From an uncultured virus (IMG/VR IMGVR_UViG_3300027847_002832) (Duplodnaviria > Heunggongvirae > Uroviricota > Caudoviricetes): a DNA stretch of 64,000 nucleotides. The notes below the pieces were generated by a model. That model saw nothing but the letters and a program-made list of their open reading frames with translations. It was not told where the DNA came from and searched no databases. The stretch lies in the IMG/VR virus record IMGVR_UViG_3300027847_002832. One strand, 5' to 3'. The position numbers and the translations under genes were made by a program. Below are positions 7,277-45,408 of the stretch, piece after piece (the first letter of the stretch is position 1; each line of letters opens with the position of its first letter).

Positions 7277-9862
7277 TCATCCTTCCTCGCTCCTATCAGT
7301 TTCTTCTTCGTCCATTTCTTGGGCAAAGTCTTTGATTTCCAGATCGAATTTCTTGATATCCGTTTCTGTAGCATCAGGAATTGGGTTTCCAGAACCGGCT
7401 GCTGGAGGTGGGCCTTGATCCATTCCCATTTCTCCTCCCATGCCTTCTTCTGCGTCCATGTATTTACGCATTCCCGGAGCACCAGTTGGCATTCCGCCAG
7501 CTTCTCCTGCACCGGGAGGCATACCCATGGCATCTCCTTGCGCTCCCATCTCTGGACCAAGCATTGGATTAGGACCACCGGGTTCTGTTCCAATTTCTTC
7601 TCCATCATCTGGGCCGGGAAGACCTACACCTAACAAGGCTGGATTCTGTGCAATGATCTGTAGCTTCAACTCTTCCAATTTTTGTATTTTGAGTCGAGCT
7701 AACATTTCTTTGGCTTCATCTTCACTGTACTTGAGCCACAATACTAGAATGTCATAATCTGACATCAATTGTGAACCCTTTAAGTTGGCTGCGTTATTTA
7801 ATCGATTAGTTACAACCTCTGCTCTTGTGAGTTCACGCCAGTCAGACGGTGGAGTCATTTTTATTTCAAGGTCTTCGTAGGAATCTTCTGTGTATCCCAT
7901 TAACCTTAGATGCCTATCACAGATTTCCCAGAAAGCATCTTCGATGTGTGCTTGAAGTCTTTCGATCATTCGAGCGAATTTAATGTCTTGTGCTGATAAT
8001 GAAATTCTGGTTGCTTGTGAATCTTCGTTGTTGAAATAGTTCTTTGGGAAATTCAAAGCGGTGAACAGTTTGTTTCTGAAGTAAACTGTGTCGTCGATCT
8101 CTCCAAGATTCTGAGCACCCGGCAATGTTTCAACACGTGTGTTGGCATTAGGACGAATAGGAATCCAGTAATCTTCATCAGCCGCAGGAGCGTGCCAGCG
8201 TTCTTCAACAGCGGACGCTCCGCTGCCTCCACCTTTACCACTAGCAACTTTCTTTTTCTTAAATTGATCTTTCATACGTTCTATGAATGCTTCGGCTTTA
8301 GCCGGATTCAATTGTTGAACGTCAATATAGAACACTCTTCTTTCAGGCGCACGTGTCAGTCTGTAAACAACCATGGCATCTTCCATCAATCTTAATTGAT
8401 GTGCTGGCCCACGAGCGGCCTCAATAAGAGACACGCCGTATGGATAGAATGTCTTTCTATCGTCTCCGATCTTAAAGTGAACTACCTGTGTTGGAGCGAA
8501 CCTTACGGCTGTGGCCTGTTGAAGATCGGCCTCAGTTGCCTGAGTGACTTCCACTCTGGCCAAACTTTGATAATCTGGGCCTTCCTTAGATTGTTGATAT
8601 TCTACGATCTTGCCTTTGGTTGTTTCGATTCTGTAGATGCTGTCTGCTGGCAAAGGAATTAAACCAATAACTCCGTTCTTAGGATTTTCAATATCAATAA
8701 TCAGTTCATAAAAGAAGTCTCCGTTAATGAACAGTCTTTTTGCCAAGTCCCACATTTTCTTTTGATCGAAGTTAAGCATTTTGCGATGGAACAATAACCA
8801 TTCAACTTCTTCTTTAACTTCTTGATTTGCACACATGATATTCATCACATGACCTTCATCATCTTTTTGGCAATTGTGAACGATGCCCCAATTGGTTGCA
8901 AAGTTTTTGTGTTTCTCTACCGACATGTCATAGACATCAATTTCTTTCCATGGTTGAACACCGACCACTCGTCGGCGATCTTCTTTGTTGCCAAGCCACT
9001 TCATCTCTTTATTTGAGAATCCAGCATTTTCAATTCTGTCTCTTACTGTGACAAAATTATTTCCTGTGAGTTTTGTTATTTGCCTTACTGTCAATCCTTC
9101 AGCAATCATTTGGCAATAGCTGTTAACTGCCTTGAGTTCATCTTTGGTTTTTCCAGTAGTCCACTCATCTACGAATTGTCTTTCATGAACCCAACCTTTT
9201 TCGTGTGTCCATATTCTCGGGAATTGATTTGTTTTAATTCCCGTTAAGTCCTGTCTGGCTTCCAGATGATAGAACGGCATTAACTCATGTCCGTAATTAA
9301 GCTCGCCTGCTTCTATCCACTTTCCATCTCTCAATAGAATTTCATGATCTGTTGTGACGATAAAAGAGTTTCCATCATCAAGCATGATTTTGATAGTTGG
9401 TGCTGTCTTTACTTTTCGTGGATTGAATGCCCAACCAAGGGTGTAGTCTCTTTTATTATGATCGTAGCAATAGACCAAAAACCTTTCGGTCTCATTCTCT
9501 GCTAGGTCTTTGATTGTTCTAAATCCATGTGGCGTTGCAATTTTTGTACTGCCTGCCAAACATGCTTCGTCAGCGAAAACGGTCATGGCCATTTCAATTT
9601 CTGCCATGTTTCTTAAGCGTTCGTACTCTTTATATCTATGAATACGGTTCGTGACCGTAGACAAATCGACAAAATCGTTTGTGTCACGTAACTTAATCGC
9701 CCCACCGCCACCGCCCCAGTTGCCGTCCTGACCGGCACGAATATCCGGGATGGCATCGGGCTGGGACACACCAGCACCCATAAGGTCTTTTTGATCTCTC
9801 TTTGTAAGAGGATCATCAGTGAACGCATACGTAAAGACTTTGAAAAAATCCCACCAAGCCAT
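7277..9862 (-). CDS. gp20: Portal protein, T4 gp20 family, with intein
   Basis: QLRLMEDAMVVYRLTRAPERRVFYIDV, EDYWIP, VETLPGAQNLGEIDD, DIKFARMIERLQ. Confidence 0.95.
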   Translation of the reverse strand: MAWWDFFKVFTYAFTDDPLTKRDQKDLMGAGVSQPDAIPDIRAGQDGNWGGGGGAIKLRDTNDFVDLSTVTNRIHRYKEYERLRNMAEIEMAMTVFADEACLAGSTKIATPHGFRTIKDLAENETERFLVYCYDHNKRDYTLGWAFNPRKVKTAPTIKIMLDDGNSFIVTTDHEILLRDGKWIEAGELNYGHELMPFYHLEARQDLTGIKTNQFPRIWTHEKGWVHERQFVDEWTTGKTKDELKAVNSYCQMIAEGLTVRQITKLTGNNFVTVRDRIENAGFSNKEMKWLGNKEDRRRVVGVQPWKEIDVYDMSVEKHKNFATNWGIVHNCQKDDEGHVMNIMCANQEVKEEVEWLLFHRKMLNFDQKKMWDLAKRLFINGDFFYELIIDIENPKNGVIGLIPLPADSIYRIETTKGKIVEYQQSKEGPDYQSLARVEVTQATEADLQQATAVRFAPTQVVHFKIGDDRKTFYPYGVSLIEAARGPAHQLRLMEDAMVVYRLTRAPERRVFYIDVQQLNPAKAEAFIERMKDQFKKKKVASGKGGGSGASAVEERWHAPAADEDYWIPIRPNANTRVETLPGAQNLGEIDDTVYFRNKLFTALNFPKNYFNNEDSQATRISLSAQDIKFARMIERLQAHIEDAFWEICDRHLRLMGYTEDSYEDLEIKMTPPSDWRELTRAEVVTNRLNNAANLKGSQLMSDYDILVLWLKYSEDEAKEMLARLKIQKLEELKLQIIAQNPALLGVGLPGPDDGEEIGTEPGGPNPMLGPEMGAQGDAMGMPPGAGEAGGMPTGAPGMRKYMDAEEGMGGEMGMDQGPPPAAGSGNPIPDATETDIKKFDLEIKDFAQEMDEEETDRSEEG
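8873..9562 (-). mobile_element. 230-aa intein in the portal (aa 101-330)
   Basis: Begins CLAGSTKIATPHG, block B TTDHEILL, ends VYDMSVEKHKNFATNWGIVHN followed by Cys+1. Confidence 0.93.
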
Positions 9863-10386: not shown

Positions 10387-10769
10387 TGACACATTTGGGA
10401 TCTGGTTGGGAATCACTTGTAGAAAAACTTAAAGAAGATCAAAGGTTTGATTTCTTCAAGACGGATTTTTATTACCATCATCCAGAAGATTTGGAGATTC
10501 TGACCAATAATGATCACAAACGAGAGAATTCTGCGTCTATTTGGTGCGATGTCATATTGCACAATAAAGACTTCACTTGCAGAGCTTTAAGAAAAAGTTG
10601 TAAGTTTGTATATTGGACTTCACCGTTTAATGCAAATATTGCACTTCCTAAGCCAGAAGACTATTACTTGAATCGACTATCTGGCATGAAGTGGTATCAC
10701 AAGAAAACAGGAGGATTGTGGAATCCTTCTTTAGAGAGCGATTCTCTCCTTAGTTCCATTCTTAGATGA
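10362..10769 (+). CDS. Hypothetical protein
   Basis: 135-aa ORF; N-terminal FIMTHLGSG weakly recalls a sulfotransferase P-loop. Confidence 0.55.
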   Translation: MQKNSLFIMTHLGSGWESLVEKLKEDQRFDFFKTDFYYHHPEDLEILTNNDHKRENSASIWCDVILHNKDFTCRALRKSCKFVYWTSPFNANIALPKPEDYYLNRLSGMKWYHKKTGGLWNPSLESDSLLSSILR

Positions 10770-11279
10770 AAAAACAATTTTGTCGCAAGAGAACTCTTTC
10801 CCTTCCCATTTGTTATTGCCTCTGTGTTTCCAGCCCTTGCCTTTTTTGACATAAGCAATTGTGATATGAGGCTTATATTCTGAGTATTTATTGGTATACT
10901 CGATGTCATCCTTCATTTTTTCATTAAAGTCAGACAAATCAGGACTATCAATCCCAATTACAACCACGTCAAATTTTAATGGGTTTGTAAATACTTCTAT
11001 TTTGCCCAGTTTGACTTTTAGTGGCTTTTCAGTAATCAGTTTTCTTACTTGTTCGGAAGTCTCTGAATGTATTCCATAAAGGATTGTGACGTGCATTTCG
11101 TCTTCTCGACCAAAAGAGGGGTCAGTCTGGCTGACAAATATTTCATTGTCTGGTATTTTCTGACTTCCCCATTTTATTATGTCCTCTGCTATTTCAGTTG
11201 GAACATCTACGTGAACTGACGAGTAGTCATATTGTGTGTTTTTCATTTCTAAGAACTTTCTAAATCTTTGCATGATCAT
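10731..11279 (-). CDS. 2H phosphoesterase, T4 gp57B/Acb1-like
   Basis: Two HxT motifs (MHVTILYG, YKPHITIAY); likely start ATG 11279 or 11273 (MQRFRKFLE). Confidence 0.85.
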   Translation of the reverse strand: MIMQRFRKFLEMKNTQYDYSSVHVDVPTEIAEDIIKWGSQKIPDNEIFVSQTDPSFGREDEMHVTILYGIHSETSEQVRKLITEKPLKVKLGKIEVFTNPLKFDVVVIGIDSPDLSDFNEKMKDDIEYTNKYSEYKPHITIAYVKKGKGWKHRGNNKWEGKEFSCDKIVFSSKNGTKERIAL

Positions 11280-11293
11280 TCTTATAAATGAAT

Positions 11294-11318
11294 AAGGCCC
11301 GAAAAAAATTCGGGCCTT
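11294..11318. terminator. Stem-loop, probable terminator
   Basis: AAGGCCCGAA-AAAAA-TTCGGGCCTT perfect 10-bp inverted repeat between genes. Confidence 0.7.
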
Positions 11319-11337
11319 GTTTGCAATTTTAGCGTCT

Positions 11338-11709
11338 TTAGTCTTGTAATAATTGGTTAGGCCCTTGATTTTGAAGAGCTTCAAGTTCTTTTAGTTTGGT
11401 TTCTTCGTCGTCAATCATCTTATCGAGTTCATTAAGGGACTTTTCGTTAGCCTCTTTTGACATTGGTGAAGCTGCCACACTAGCCACTCCTGCTTGAACA
11501 TTTCCCCACCATTGCTGATAGTCGGTTTCTGTCTGCTGGGCTTTTTTCGATTTTGATTTTGATGCCTTATCAACATTTTTCATGGCTTGTCTAATATGAG
11601 ACTTGGCCTCATCTACAGACCTGTTGCTTTTCATATTGTGATTAGCCACGCCCAATGCCTGAGACAAAAGACCTTTTATTCTTCCGAGTTGATCTGTTCC
11701 GTAATCCAT
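11338..11709 (-). CDS. Hypothetical coiled-coil protein
   Basis: 123-aa ORF, translationally coupled to the upstream ORF. Confidence 0.65.
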   Translation of the reverse strand: MDYGTDQLGRIKGLLSQALGVANHNMKSNRSVDEAKSHIRQAMKNVDKASKSKSKKAQQTETDYQQWWGNVQAGVASVAASPMSKEANEKSLNELDKMIDDEETKLKELEALQNQGPNQLLQD

Positions 11710-33601: not shown

Positions 33602-34624
33602 TTAAGGATTTCCTCCAGCATTTTCCGCTGCCACCAAGCACCCTTGGGCCACGGAGTAAAGAGGCTTCTCTGGCCGAATGACTTTACCAAGATCAGCAGA
33701 GATGCCTGCGCTGTGCAACATTTTGTCAAACAGCGTGTCAAATCCCGGAGGACTTGATGTTCCGCCAGCTACCACAATGTCAATTGGGCTATCAAGTCGT
33801 GCTTGTTTGTCTTTGTTTTCTTCAAGACCTTTTTTGATACCGCCAACCGTTCTTTCGATCATTAACTCGTATTGAGTTTTGATAGCACGCTCAACAAGAT
33901 TTTGAGGTTCGGCTCCCAGATCGATCTTCTCTTTCTCATGGTTAATGAAAGCAATGCTTTCGCCAGTTGCCTTGGCAGCTTGTTTGTCAATCCAGTCACC
34001 GGAGTTGACCAAAGCAAAGCTAAAGACTTCTGCACCATAGAGTGAGAAGGCTACGTTGACCATGCCTGCACCGCAAGAAATGCCAATGCCTGTAAACATC
34101 TTGTCAGCTAACTCAGAGTAAACTAGAGCCATGCCTTCGTTGATCGGTCGAGGGTCAACTTTCCAGCCTTCTTTTGTTTCAAAAGCATTGAAGATAGCTT
34201 CAAGAAGCTTTCTGTGATAATCGGCATCGGTCTCTTCGTTGATGGCATTAGCCGGTACTGAATAATAAAGAAGCTCTCCATCTTTGGAGACTTCATCTAG
34301 CAGACTGTGTATCATGATGTTCATGATTTGGAAAGCATCTTGTTCTTTCGGGTTTACGCATCCGTCTTTCATAGGACGTTTAAGATCGACCTTGTTCATG
34401 GTGTAAGCCATTTTCAAGGCAGCATCTCCAAGAGCGTAAGCCACATTTGCATCATCATTGCGGATCAAAGGCACGCCAGCCTGCTTCATCATGTTGAATA
34501 CGAAATCGTTATCCAACGGCATTTCCAAGAATGCGTTAACTTCTCTTTTGTAGGAGAAGTTAGACTCATCTGTGCGTTTGCAAACTACTAAATTATATGT
34601 TCCGATATCGGCTCCAATTGCCAT
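33602..34624 (-). CDS. Actin-fold ATPase (MreB/ParM/MamK-like superfamily)
   Basis: Phosphate-1 IGADIGTYN, connect-1 INEGMA, phosphate-2 GISCGAGMVN, adenosine VVAGGTS, connect-2 SVAQGCL. Confidence 0.85.
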   Translation of the reverse strand: MAIGADIGTYNLVVCKRTDESNFSYKREVNAFLEMPLDNDFVFNMMKQAGVPLIRNDDANVAYALGDAALKMAYTMNKVDLKRPMKDGCVNPKEQDAFQIMNIMIHSLLDEVSKDGELLYYSVPANAINEETDADYHRKLLEAIFNAFETKEGWKVDPRPINEGMALVYSELADKMFTGIGISCGAGMVNVAFSLYGAEVFSFALVNSGDWIDKQAAKATGESIAFINHEKEKIDLGAEPQNLVERAIKTQYELMIERTVGGIKKGLEENKDKQARLDSPIDIVVAGGTSSPPGFDTLFDKMLHSAGISADLGKVIRPEKPLYSVAQGCLVAAENAGGNP

Positions 34625-41140: not shown

Positions 41141-42607
41141 ATGTACCAAGGCAAAAATTATATCAACGGAGAATGGCGGGATGTAACTGAATCGTTTGAA
41201 ACAGTTAACCCCGCCACAGAAGAAGTTTATGGAACTTTTCCTAACAGAGTCGAAGAAGCAGGACTGGCAGTAAAAGCCGCTCGTAAATCTTTTGATTCAT
41301 GGAGAAAAGAAAGTCGAGTTAGAAGAGCAGAGTATTTTGATGTTCTTGCACAACTCATTAAGCGTGATCACGATAAGCTTAAAGATGCTATATCGATAGA
41401 GACAGGAAAGAATCTTAATGAGTCACATGCAGAAGTCATTGAAGCTCTCCATATGTGCCAGTTCGCCGCTGCTTCTGGACGAGAGGCATTCGGAACATGT
41501 GTGGCGTCCGAACTTCCTACGAAGGACGCATATGTCATTAGGAAGCCTAGAGGGGTTGTTGCTGTTATCTCTCCTTGGAACTTTCCTCTTGCTATCGGCT
41601 CTTTTTGGAGTTCTGCTCCTGCTCTCGTTGAGGGCAACACCGTTGTACACAAGCCATCTGAGCTTACTCCAATGGTCAACCAAATAGTCACTGAACTTTA
41701 TCATGAAGCTGGTTTCCCAGCAGGTGTTTTCAATCTTATACATGGTGAAGGTGCTGTTGGTGCTGCTCTAGTCAGAAGTGAAGTAGATGTTATTCTTTTC
41801 ACGGGATCGTCAGAAGTCGGTCAGGATATTAGAACACACTGTGCGTCTACTGATTCCAAAAGAACGTGTATTGAATGCGGTTCAAAGTCAGCAACTATTG
41901 TCTTTGATGATGGCGATATGGAATTGGCTCTTGACGCCGCTGTAGCATCTGCTTTCAAACTCTCTGGACAAAGATGTGTTTCGTCAGGACGCTTGATTGT
42001 CCAACGTAGCATCTTTGACAAGTTTGCAGAAGAATACACCAATAGAGTGTCTGCGCTTGTTACAGGCGATCCTTTCAAAGCTCCAGCCGCTTTCTATGGG
42101 CCGCTCATCAGCCACGAGCAAATGGACAAGGTAGAAGCTTTTAATCAACTTGTTCGTGAAGATAGCGATGCAGAAGTTCTTTTGAATGGTGGAAGACTTG
42201 ATCCTGATCCCGGATACTTCCTCACGCCGTTCGTCTATAAGTGCGAATGGGCCAGAGACAAGCCTTTCTTGTCTCAAGAGGTCTTCGGGCCTCATGTTGC
42301 GTTGATTCCTTTCGATGATCTGGACGATGCCATTAGAATTTACAATGATACAGATTATGGTCTTGCTTTAGGAATCGTCACAGATGACTTCCGTAAGCAC
42401 AGAAAAATCGCTCAAGAATGTATCACTGGTATGCTTTATGTCAACGGTGGTTCAATTGCAGCAGAATCTCATATTCCATTTTCTTCATGGAAGAAGAGTG
42501 GGTATGGTGCCAGTGCTGCGGGAACTTACAAAGCTGTTACTCACAGCATGTCCATAACGGTGAACTACGAAGAAGGAAAAGTGAGTTGGGCACAAGGAAT
42601 GGAGTAA
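41141..42607 (+). CDS. NAD(P)-dependent aldehyde dehydrogenase
   Basis: ISPWNFP, KPSE, FTGS, ECGSK, SGQRC, EVFGP; start ATG 41141 with GGAGG. Confidence 0.95.
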   Translation: MYQGKNYINGEWRDVTESFETVNPATEEVYGTFPNRVEEAGLAVKAARKSFDSWRKESRVRRAEYFDVLAQLIKRDHDKLKDAISIETGKNLNESHAEVIEALHMCQFAAASGREAFGTCVASELPTKDAYVIRKPRGVVAVISPWNFPLAIGSFWSSAPALVEGNTVVHKPSELTPMVNQIVTELYHEAGFPAGVFNLIHGEGAVGAALVRSEVDVILFTGSSEVGQDIRTHCASTDSKRTCIECGSKSATIVFDDGDMELALDAAVASAFKLSGQRCVSSGRLIVQRSIFDKFAEEYTNRVSALVTGDPFKAPAAFYGPLISHEQMDKVEAFNQLVREDSDAEVLLNGGRLDPDPGYFLTPFVYKCEWARDKPFLSQEVFGPHVALIPFDDLDDAIRIYNDTDYGLALGIVTDDFRKHRKIAQECITGMLYVNGGSIAAESHIPFSSWKKSGYGASAAGTYKAVTHSMSITVNYEEGKVSWAQGME

Positions 42608-42815: not shown

Positions 42816-43283
42816 TTGGAAATACATTTTACAGAACATGAAGATTTGATGAGAAGGCAAACTGTTATATCAGCATACACTCAAGTTGGTAACAGGCGTG
42901 TCCAATCTCGAATGTATGTTTCGTTAGATAACTACCGTCAAAATTACATAGACTCAGCATACCAATTGCTTAAAGATGAAGTGAGGCAAAGAGCTTTGAC
43001 AGAAATGAGGTCTCAACAGCATTACTCAAATAGAGATGCTGTGAGGGATTCAGACGATGCAAATGATGCACGTGAAGCTGCTATGACAGCATTGTTTGGA
43101 TTACCGGCTCGTAGAGTTGATGCCATGCCAGTTCCATTATATGATCTTCAAAATGGTCGTCCTGTGTTTCCGTTAGACCTAAACAGAGGGGCTTGGATAG
43201 AGAATTACAGATATTCAGAAAACAGTGGTGGCCGGGCGAAAATGACCAAGGATAAAGTGAACTGGTTGAAGGAGGGATTTTGA
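42816..43283 (+). CDS. Hypothetical protein ending in WLKEGF
   Basis: TTG start with AGGAGG RBS; C-terminus KVNWLKEGF. Confidence 0.65.
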   Translation: MEIHFTEHEDLMRRQTVISAYTQVGNRRVQSRMYVSLDNYRQNYIDSAYQLLKDEVRQRALTEMRSQQHYSNRDAVRDSDDANDAREAAMTALFGLPARRVDAMPVPLYDLQNGRPVFPLDLNRGAWIENYRYSENSGGRAKMTKDKVNWLKEGF

Positions 43284-43468
43284 CAGATCGTATATTGAAA
43301 GCAACATGGTCTCTTGAAGCCCAACAAGATTTAGAAGCGTGGCACGGTATTGCAATTGAAGAACTAACCCGTAATATAATAATAGACATGGATCGGGACT
43401 TCATACGATGGGCTAACATGGCGACTGTTGTTGAATCAACAGTCAATTGGAAGAAAGAAGGATTTTAA
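43280..43468 (+). CDS. Mini-protein carrying a gp23 capsid fragment, ending in WKKEGF
   Basis: RILKATWSLEAQQDL versus MCP RKLKAVWSYEAQQDL (12/15 identical); TTG start overlapping the previous stop. Confidence 0.7.
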   Translation: MTDRILKATWSLEAQQDLEAWHGIAIEELTRNIIIDMDRDFIRWANMATVVESTVNWKKEGF

Positions 43469-43469
43469 G

Positions 43470-44348
43470 ATGGATACAATCGGAATCATAGGACAAGGTT
43501 TTGTTGGGACAGCTATTTTCGAGGGAATGAAACACGCTTTCGAAATTTGGGCTTATGACATCAAAACAGGAGTCACAGGATGGATGGGCGGCAAGGGATT
43601 TGAGACAAGCACAGGATCAAGTGTTGAAAGTGGATTTAAGCAAATTCTTGCTAAATGCGACATCATTTTTGTTTGCCTTCCAACGCCCATGAACCCAGAT
43701 GGAACGTGTAATACAAAAATTGTGGAAGATGCTGTCAACATGCTTGATGAACTCAATCCCGGCGATCACAAAGTTATCGTGATCAAATCTACTGTGCCAC
43801 CGGGAACTACAGAAGGTCTTAATAAAACTTCTGGAGATTGGGTTTGCTTCAACCCTGAGTTCCTTACAGAGCGTACTTCTGTTGAGGATTTCAAGAACCA
43901 AGACAGAATCATCATAGGTGGACCACGAGAAGGTACTAACGTACTTAAAGCAATGTATGAAAAAGCATACCCAAACGTACCTGTCACTAAGACATCATCA
44001 ACCATTGCAGAACTCGTAAAGTACACGACTAATTGTTTTCTTGCTACAAAAGTTGCATTTGCTAACGAGGTTGCTCAAGTCTGTGATTCTTTAGATGAAG
44101 ATTATGACAAGGTTGTGGAATACGCCACTAAGGACAATCGACTGGGCAACTCACATTGGTCTGTTCCGGGGCCTGATGGCAAGAAAGGGTTTGGCGGCAG
44201 TTGTTTTCCAAAAGACCTTAACGCATTCATACAGATGGCAGGAGACCTTGATGTGTATTGTCATACTTTGCAAGGGGCATGGCAAACTAATTGTAAGGTT
44301 CGTCCAGAAAAAGATTGGGAACAACTTAAAGGCAGAGCGGTTACTTAA
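43470..44348 (+). CDS. UDP-glucose/GDP-mannose dehydrogenase family protein (short form)
   Basis: GQGFVG, CLPTP, IKSTVPPGTT, FNPEFL, AELVKY, GFGGSCFPKD. Confidence 0.9.
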   Translation: MDTIGIIGQGFVGTAIFEGMKHAFEIWAYDIKTGVTGWMGGKGFETSTGSSVESGFKQILAKCDIIFVCLPTPMNPDGTCNTKIVEDAVNMLDELNPGDHKVIVIKSTVPPGTTEGLNKTSGDWVCFNPEFLTERTSVEDFKNQDRIIIGGPREGTNVLKAMYEKAYPNVPVTKTSSTIAELVKYTTNCFLATKVAFANEVAQVCDSLDEDYDKVVEYATKDNRLGNSHWSVPGPDGKKGFGGSCFPKDLNAFIQMAGDLDVYCHTLQGAWQTNCKVRPEKDWEQLKGRAVT

Positions 44349-45089: not shown

Positions 45090-45408
45090 TTTTAACGCAG
45101 AATCGTGGAATGATGAATTCTCCTGAATCAACTTCAACATGAACTTTTTTGCCTTCTACGGACAAAACAGTTCCACCGTTTAGCTTAAATTCAGCAACTA
45201 ATTGCTCCGCATCATCATCACATTCTATTTTTTCAATAAGCTTGCCTTCGCTTACTTTTGATTTGACTCTATTGCCAATATATTTTTCATTAGGGTCTGC
45301 CTGAAAATTAAAGAAATCAGACATTCCATTCTGGTCTGAAAACCAGTCTTTGAAATCAGATATTGATCTGTATTTAGGTTGTTGTTGTTGTTGTTGTTGT
45401 TGTTCCAT
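45076..45408 (-). CDS. Small protein with poly-Gln N-terminus
   Basis: AAGGAG RBS before MEQQQ; SH3-like beta-rich C-terminus. Confidence 0.6.
   Translation of the reverse strand: MEQQQQQQQQPKYRSISDFKDWFSDQNGMSDFFNFQADPNEKYIGNRVKSKVSEGKLIEKIECDDDAEQLVAEFKLNGGTVLSVEGKKVHVEVDSGEFIIPRFCVKIKKS

Follow-up and report, generated by a model that had tools for sequence, protein, structure and literature searches.

The major capsid protein (MCP) of phage T4, gp23 (PF07068, PHROG 138; PDB 6uzc, 5vf3, 7vs5), adopts a full HK97-type fold, which comprises an A domain, a P domain, and an insertion domain. Short terminal docking motifs are found on other proteins, such as the C-terminal ClpX-binding peptide of SspB and the clamp-binding tails of T4, and the genomes of huge phages contain small orphan genes by the hundred, which offer no handle on function. 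A short linear piece of gp23, Gol, is bound by host EF-Tu and triggers exclusion via the e14 Lit protease, according to the accessible part of PMC3014915. Capsid proteins also trigger Thoeris, CapRel, and other defenses, as documented in the accessible part of PMC13728456, which bears out the statement in a first-pass annotation of this locus that capsid proteins are triggers of some anti-phage sensors; as reviewed there, the capsid triggers in one screen need oligomerization.

The mini-gene described here lies in the window (the whole 64,000-nt stretch of DNA that was analyzed), and joins a gp23-derived segment to a short C-terminal tag. Its likeness to gp23 covers residues 4-51, and passes the Pfam cut-off, but extends over about 50 of the 376 profile positions, with which no fold can be completed; the HK97-type fold is replaced by two helices in the model of the 62-aa mini-protein. 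gp23 lacks the tag, whereas the mini-gene has it, and evolves fast where the MCP is frozen. By these comparisons, the mini-gene is a derivative of gp23 but not a capsid protein. Unlike Gol, which is part of the full capsid protein, it is a separate gene, and it matches a different region of the MCP (271-314, against about 58-113 for Gol). The likeness to Gol lies in eight tagged ORFs that carry the matching region, with tagged ORF 2 carrying it in eroded form. Like the SspB peptide and the clamp-binding tails, the tag is short and portable, and stands at the C-terminus of proteins that are otherwise unrelated, but its sequence is different and it sits on far more, and more varied, proteins. 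In the accessible part of PMC8569155, the SaPI protein Ccm offers another parallel, as the product of a gene that derives from a capsid gene and now acts on, or against, the assembly of capsids; however, Ccm is a whole, satellite-encoded homologue found in pentamers, whereas the mini-gene is a tagged fragment in the phage's own genome. A search of the full-text literature, mainly of papers that need no subscription, found neither the tag, nor its six letters, nor tagged capsid-fragment genes, and a gene of this kind is apparently undescribed in print.

Make-up and setting of the mini-gene

The first-pass annotation had reported a 62-aa ORF with a TTG start (43280-43468), 40 kb from the capsid gene, that aligns with MCP residues ~271-314 and shares 12/15 core residues. 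The same ORF was recovered (Table 1), at a measured distance of 40.5 kb from the MCP gene, and BLASTP aligned its residues 4-42 with 271-314 of the window's own MCP (20/44 identical, pairwise E 3e-8), the core being identical at 12 of 15 positions. The comparison with gp23 that the annotation had proposed gave further matches to Pfam Gp23 (PF07068; 28.3 bits against a cut-off of 24.4, profile positions 148-205 of 376) and to PHROG 138 (E 2.5e-7). Apart from this core, and outside the MCP gene, the best ungapped 15-mer against the MCP, in all six frames of the window, was identical at 8/15 positions. An NCBIfam scan of the mini-gene found no family, and the ESM Atlas gave sub-threshold leads, YoeB-like for the mini-gene (0.87), and one for the protein P0038 (0.76, TM under 0.4). 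A 121-aa minus-strand ORF that overlaps the mini-gene was rejected as a gene candidate; in the L005 orthologue, a stop codon interrupts its frame.

Table 1. Features of the tagged locus and of the source gene (positions within the window)
Feature	Position	Strand	Remarks
Own gp23-type MCP, 487 aa	1325..2788	-	source segment aa 271-314 at nt 1847-1978
Aldehyde dehydrogenase (ALDH) gene	41141..42607	+	left anchor of tagged array
Tagged ORF 1, 61 aa	42622..42807	+	no gp23 match; dN/dS 0.03
Tagged ORF 2, 155 aa	42816..43283	+	carries the shared N-terminal domain, a Gol-region piece of gp23 that is strongly eroded, and the tag
SD-like AAGGAGG (43269-43275) to TTG start	43269..43283	+	inside upstream ORF tail codons
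Mini-gene	43280..43468	+	62 aa, TTG start; made up of a segment from gp23, a linker that varies, and the C-terminal tag
Conserved gp23 core, aa 4-22 (P-domain strand, short helix)	43289..43345	+	= own MCP 271-289, T4 gp23 264-282
Eroded spine-helix part and linker, aa 23-54	43346..43441	+	dN/dS 0.57; helix modeled at aa 26-48
C-terminal tag V-N-W-K-K-E-G-F and stop	43442..43468	+	invariant in 4/5 orthologues; fifth has one K->E
UDP-glucose dehydrogenase-like (UGD) gene	43470..44348	+	right anchor of tagged array

The window comprises the structural region of a T4-like phage, with protease, portal, terminase, and baseplate genes. The contigs that carry the nearest relatives of its MCP reach 673 kb, and the source is therefore most likely a huge phage. 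The true MCP, not the mini-gene, holds the head-cluster place after the protease and scaffold; the mini-gene lies between the ALDH and UGD genes, where the only three ORFs of the window with a W-x-x-E-G-F ending are found. The Gol-region piece of tagged ORF 2 is almost beyond recognition, but is still plain in a 49% identical orthologue. Tagged ORF 1 has orthologues, 65-70% identical, at the same place in two other loci (L213 and L283), and shows no family match. In a close relative, a 180-aa ORF (L004 2805-3347) separates the ALDH gene from the first tagged gene.

An own RBS had also been ascribed to the mini-gene. This part of the annotation did not stand: the AAGGAGG motif, 4 nt before the TTG, is formed by the codons for K-E-G in the tail of the upstream ORF, whose stop is overlapped by the TTG (TTGA), so that the mini-gene is translationally coupled, rather than independently equipped. 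Promoter and terminator scans showed no excess over shuffled sequence (12 versus 13.3, and 1 versus 4.5, respectively). Four metatranscriptome runs contained short contigs, 99% or more alike, over the ALDH gene, tagged ORF 1, the UGD gene, and a downstream gene; the mini-gene had no contig in these runs, in which cover was sparse (3-10 of 30 bins) and the contigs may be DNA.

In T4 terms, mini-gene residues 4-51 align with gp23 263-316, which places A8 at T4 A268, and Q15 at T4 A275. By the HK97 fold, the aligned stretch would comprise a P-domain strand, a short helix, and the spine helix. In T4, capsomers touch near the quasi-threefold axes, the contact being made by the short acidic helix of the P-domain and by its basic strands; A268V and A275T are intercapsomer contact changes that alter T4 head length (accessible part of PMC9546572). 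Because the strand and short helix lie at the T4 capsomer edge and make contacts between capsomers, this surface should be open on unassembled gp23. In 98 of the 120 clade MCPs, this segment has exactly the same letters, whereas the mini-gene is 41-45% identical to it. A model of the mini-protein, built from 22 sequences, has helices at residues 12-22 and 26-48, and coil at both ends (pLDDT 70, pTM 0.33); that the kept strand is modeled as coil in the free protein suggests a binding role, rather than a folding one. A complex prediction for MCP 55-487 with the mini-gene scored 0.00, which answers neither way, and a single-sequence fold of the MCP (pLDDT 35) was left unused.

Orthologues, selection, and distribution

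A search for proteins of near length gave five candidates, all of them accounted for by the query's own cluster and four others, which align end to end with the mini-gene at 85, 74, 57, and 53% identity. The frame is open in all five homologues found (53-100% identity), and residues L6-W10, E13-L18, and the V, N, W, K, E, G, and F of the tail are invariant. Comparison with the L005 orthologue, a single pair, gave a dN/dS of 0.36 (dS 0.47, Fisher p 0.011), and values of 0.03-0.37 for the flanking genes (dS 0.16-0.58). Within the mini-gene, the same pair gave 0.15 for the core (aa 2-22), 0.57 for the middle, and a tail without replacement; replacements fell on 3/50 sites of the core, versus 19/75 of the middle (p 0.007). 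Both ends of the mini-gene are thus, by substitution pattern, under purifying selection, and the gene is not a decaying copy.

Identity to the own MCP by codon position is 0.58/0.74/0.26, which rules out a recent capture from that gene, and indicates that the copy is old, with its likeness kept at the protein level. The capsid segment is the same in the four clade MCPs compared, making an own and a foreign source of the mini-gene look alike.

A gene with segment and tag is present in all eight distinct ALDH-UGD intervals among the loci collected, in which the ALDH gene, where present, is 66-100% identical, and the UGD gene 62-100%. Seven of the eight match the core pattern; the eighth, L044, where the gp23 segment is worn and the ALDH gene falls outside the locus, matches MCP 273-322 by BLAST. 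The gp23 cores of T006 and T036 are likewise worn. No tail, and no segment-plus-tag gene, was found in the complete 595-kb genome LR756511.1 (MCP 77-79% identical), and neither a segment-bearing mini-gene nor a UGD gene was found in G005 (459 kb, 91% complete; MCP 90% identical), which has three tail matches. The mini-gene is an accessory gene, patchy among relatives.

The first-pass annotation had named dN/dS below 1 and recurrence in relatives as what to look for, and a neutral duplicate of part of the capsid gene, in decay, as the competing explanation. The fast divergence from the MCP, and the erosion of some family members, are what such a duplicate would show. However, the frame is open in 5/5 homologues, third codon positions are saturated while residues are kept, dN/dS is 0.36 in the one pair, and the position is conserved in 8/8 intervals; a neutral duplicate is therefore very improbable, and this reading is largely refuted already.

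The tag and its cargo

The spread of the tag was surveyed by scanning viral and metagenome contigs, as well as ten phage records, for its pattern. At least 182 distinct frames end in the tail, and at least 169 of them are open for 40 residues or more; eight viral loci with a 234-458-aa DnaB-like ORF, and all loci from cellular genomes (L120-L208), were kept out of the 169. The consensus, E-K-V-N/D-W-K-K-E-G-F, stands at a free C-terminus. In the 169 listed ORFs it is written with every synonymous codon of Val and Gly (four each) and of Glu and Phe (two each), and with all three stops, and 55 tails found only as neighbors follow the same codon and stop pattern. The listed ORFs have a median length of 98 aa, 24/169 have a membrane-like stretch, and in 76/169 the next ATG overlaps the stop. 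Two phage records hold 8 (G002) and 10 (G003) copies, against 0 for the reversed pattern. By its codon usage and its carriers, the tail is a portable protein-level C-terminal tag on unrelated small proteins. The shared module that the first-pass annotation saw in the WKKEGF tail thus recurs on at least 169 distinct small ORFs, often in arrays.

Other natures of the tag were considered and set aside. A DNA or SD element was rejected on the free use of synonymous codons (GAA 107, GAG 62). The tail of a core planctomycete protein found no support, with 7 matches, versus 8 for the reversed control, in 401 genomes; five chosen planctomycete genomes have 1-4 pattern matches each. A capsid-packaging signal is disfavored by the 24/169 listed carriers that look membrane-anchored. 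The same six terminal residues also occur on a protein read by eye as DnaB-like (L012, L013, L017, L023, L030, L031, L033, and L035), where the V-N/D lead-in is missing, and the shared ending is probably due to chance. The arrays include 13 tagged ORFs at L218 48-5999, 10 at L278 371-5175, and 6 at L277 204-1462; those of L218 have cargoes, 145-220 aa long and without PHROG match, that resemble paralogues which have diverged.

The cargo was searched with a profile of four clade MCPs. Pieces of gp23 were found in 23 of the 169 listed ORFs, and in none of the reversed controls, the 23 carriers being non-independent, as synteny links many of them and the mini-gene itself was the seed of the first searches. 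Eleven of the pieces come from MCP about 240-325, the region of the mini-gene, and eight from MCP about 52-113, the region of the Gol peptide; one is N-terminal, two are C-terminal, and one is a weak match from MCP 160-243. The remaining 146/169 have no gp23 piece. PHROGs, run on 150 tagged ORFs, showed no recurring family except major-head-protein families. Among the other window proteins, only the portal matched a tagged ORF, besides the orthologues of the window's own tagged ORFs, and did so once and weakly (L244 2331-2471 against portal 720-749, E 3e-4).

An all-against profile search gave 47 matches, mostly to proteins of 60-150 aa with the mini-gene's segment. In 40 proteins with segment and tail, a set biased by having been found through likeness to the motif, R271, L273, A275, W277, E280, and D284 are kept in 92-97%, while the flanks differ; the ends of these proteins are varied, and their identity to the MCP is 27-81%. 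The motif also occurs with another tail, or with none. In the L037 array, N-terminal, middle, and C-terminal gp23 pieces stand side by side. An N-terminal domain is common to the segment carriers and the Gol-region carriers (hhalign 97%), and as judged from these alignments the tagged locus is modular, consisting of N-terminal domain, gp23 piece, and tail. The mini-gene is one member of a larger system of tagged genes that captures several gp23 pieces, which the first-pass annotation had missed.

Some arrangements fall outside this scheme. A second tail, R-S-I-x-D, follows the mini-gene's gp23 segment in P0023, P0025, P0037, and P0039, and a similar motif follows a poly-Q run in a 122-aa ORF of the window, near 45372 on the minus strand. 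Two gp23 pieces, across a large gap or permuted, are present in P0019, P0029, P0040, P0042, and L037 2668-3024. The tagless LR756511.1 has stand-alone gp23-piece ORFs (L306, L307, and L308), of which one has C-terminal strands (99 aa), one MCP 134-204 (227 aa), and one, at a distance of about 1.6 kb from clpX, MCP 318-438 (168 aa).

Candidate functions and host

From the conservation of its two ends, we infer that each end of the mini-protein binds something. The reading that we favor, tentatively and with the greater weight of probability still elsewhere, is that of a two-part bait, in which the capsid motif occupies a host factor that recognizes gp23, and the tail docks on a common hub. Expression of the mini-protein would come from the ALDH-UGD operon, separately from that of the structural genes, and probably earlier. 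The gp23 motif would then occupy the factor without triggering it, the factor being either an anti-phage sensor or a binder of nascent gp23, in the way that EF-Tu binds the Gol peptide. The tag would dock the complex on the hub, which would sequester or destroy the factor. As a speculative choice, the hub could be ClpX, reading the tag like an adaptor tail; ClpX is a lead only, by analogy, and is present in 4/5 clade records searched, each copy with an N-terminal pair of CxxC motifs, but LR756511.1 has ClpX and no tag. The four phage ClpX copies L322-L325 all end in E-A-A.

The bait is favored because a host system recognizes a linear piece of gp23 (Gol, EF-Tu, and Lit), because capsid proteins trigger several defenses, and because the mini-gene is patchy, which fits a counter-defense gene. 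The second capture hot spot (8/23) is the Gol region, a host-recognized gp23 trigger, and the segment residues are kept in 92-97% of the 40 proteins of the biased set, with differing flanks. Against it, the need of capsid triggers for oligomerization means that a short piece may not mimic them, and a faithful decoy might be expected to track the near-frozen MCP segment, to which the mini-gene is 41-45% identical. The Gol piece of tagged ORF 2 is eroded, and T006 and T036 have worn cores; 146/169 listed tagged ORFs have no gp23 piece, the dN/dS comes from one pair, and the tag pattern is no commoner than its reversed control in 401 planctomycete genomes.

The 146/169 listed ORFs without a gp23 piece, together with the appearance of only major-head-protein families among the 150 ORFs searched, would be expected if the tag did the work, for example by titrating a host hub, or redirecting it, through mass action, with the gp23 piece as a soluble carrier. 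The loss of most of the Gol piece from tagged ORF 2, which kept its N-domain and tag, points the same way, as do the membrane-like segments in 24/169 listed ORFs, and the dN/dS of 0.57 in the middle of the mini-gene. However, constraint is tighter on the core than on the middle (3/50 versus 19/75, p 0.007), the gp23 core is kept in 8/8 syntenic intervals, and the motif is found with another tail or none. We regard a carrier role as possible but doubtful, and give the same standing to its corollary, that the frequent capture of gp23 reflects the capsid gene's having the highest expression. The nature of the piece, an intercapsomer module, would fit a target in the capsid itself. The mini-protein might bind the capsomer edges or the nascent gp23 of a co-infecting phage, and cap or misfold them, with the tag handing the product to a protease; arrays such as L037, with N-terminal, middle, and C-terminal pieces together, and the existence of capsid homologues that redirect assembly (Ccm, accessible part of PMC8569155) are in keeping with this. 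It is nevertheless unlikely: the segment is identical in most clade MCPs (98/120), such that self would be hit too, and Ccm is a whole capsid homologue, not a piece of 20-40 residues. The inability of such an inhibitor to tell self from kin is a further reason why the bait is favored.

A still less likely alternative is that the mini-protein helps the phage's own head assembly, by shielding the capsomer edge or removing misfolded gp23, and may tune head size. Both T4 length-mutation positions lie inside the piece, and the clade encodes its own ClpX, but the gene is missing from a complete relative and from one that is 91% complete (MCP 90% identical), and lies 40 kb off, on the other strand, among metabolic genes. 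Mechanisms beyond those listed share a small remainder of the probability.

A broader form of the bait reading, in which huge planctomycete phages copy capsid pieces into tag-supplying slots, as a bait library that delivers sensors to a hub such as ClpX, is improbable, but would, if true, amount to a natural targeted-degradation system with swappable bait, and a modular counter-immunity kit. A constant tag marks a large set of small orphan huge-phage genes, of which the gp23 pieces are one recognizable cargo class. If the pieces are baits, each would be a probe for a capsid-sensing defense protein, and the captured regions would map what hosts watch. Should the tag have a single reader, its discovery would give a large share of the dark genes a common mechanism in one step. 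The arrays also show, even with the cargo as no more than a carrier, a route to the birth of phage genes from fragments of core genes.

The host is likely a planctomycete, as judged from sequence comparisons. Among the matches listed, the tail ends an ORF of at least 50 aa in 6/11 Planctomycetota loci, versus 3/69 others (p 1e-4). Of 22 genomes taken from tail loci, six of them planctomycetes, four planctomycetes gave the best scores with the ClpX of G003, and a Brocadiaceae genome gave the best score with the window ALDH (433 bits, next 299). In the sample of 401 planctomycete genomes, the loose tag pattern showed no excess (7, versus 8 in the reversed control). The host table in the accessible part of PMC7162821 leaves the host unresolved for a genome that putatively matches LR756511.1, with Planctomycetes in third place. 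Tagged ORFs of 55-208 aa occur in planctomycete genomes at L137, L138, L149, L187, and L199, and an NCBIfam scan of five planctomycete tagged ORFs gave no match. Three planctomycete tagged ORFs stand beside methylase-like ORFs (read by eye as DNA methylases), and the presence of such tagged ORFs in planctomycete genomes points to a host-side reader.

Further genes of the window deserve mention. A 340-aa actin-like protein (33602-34624, minus strand; Pfam Volactin, 233 bits) is 74-79% identical in two related phage records (2/5 records), and had no sequence match in the PDB. The tag has a likeness to the end of the villin headpiece, by which this phage actin-like protein would be a possible hub. 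An Acb1-like 2H phosphoesterase (10731-11384, minus strand) scores above the Pfam cut-off, and is a probable anti-CBASS gene. The T4-type portal gene (7277-9862, minus strand) contains an intein.
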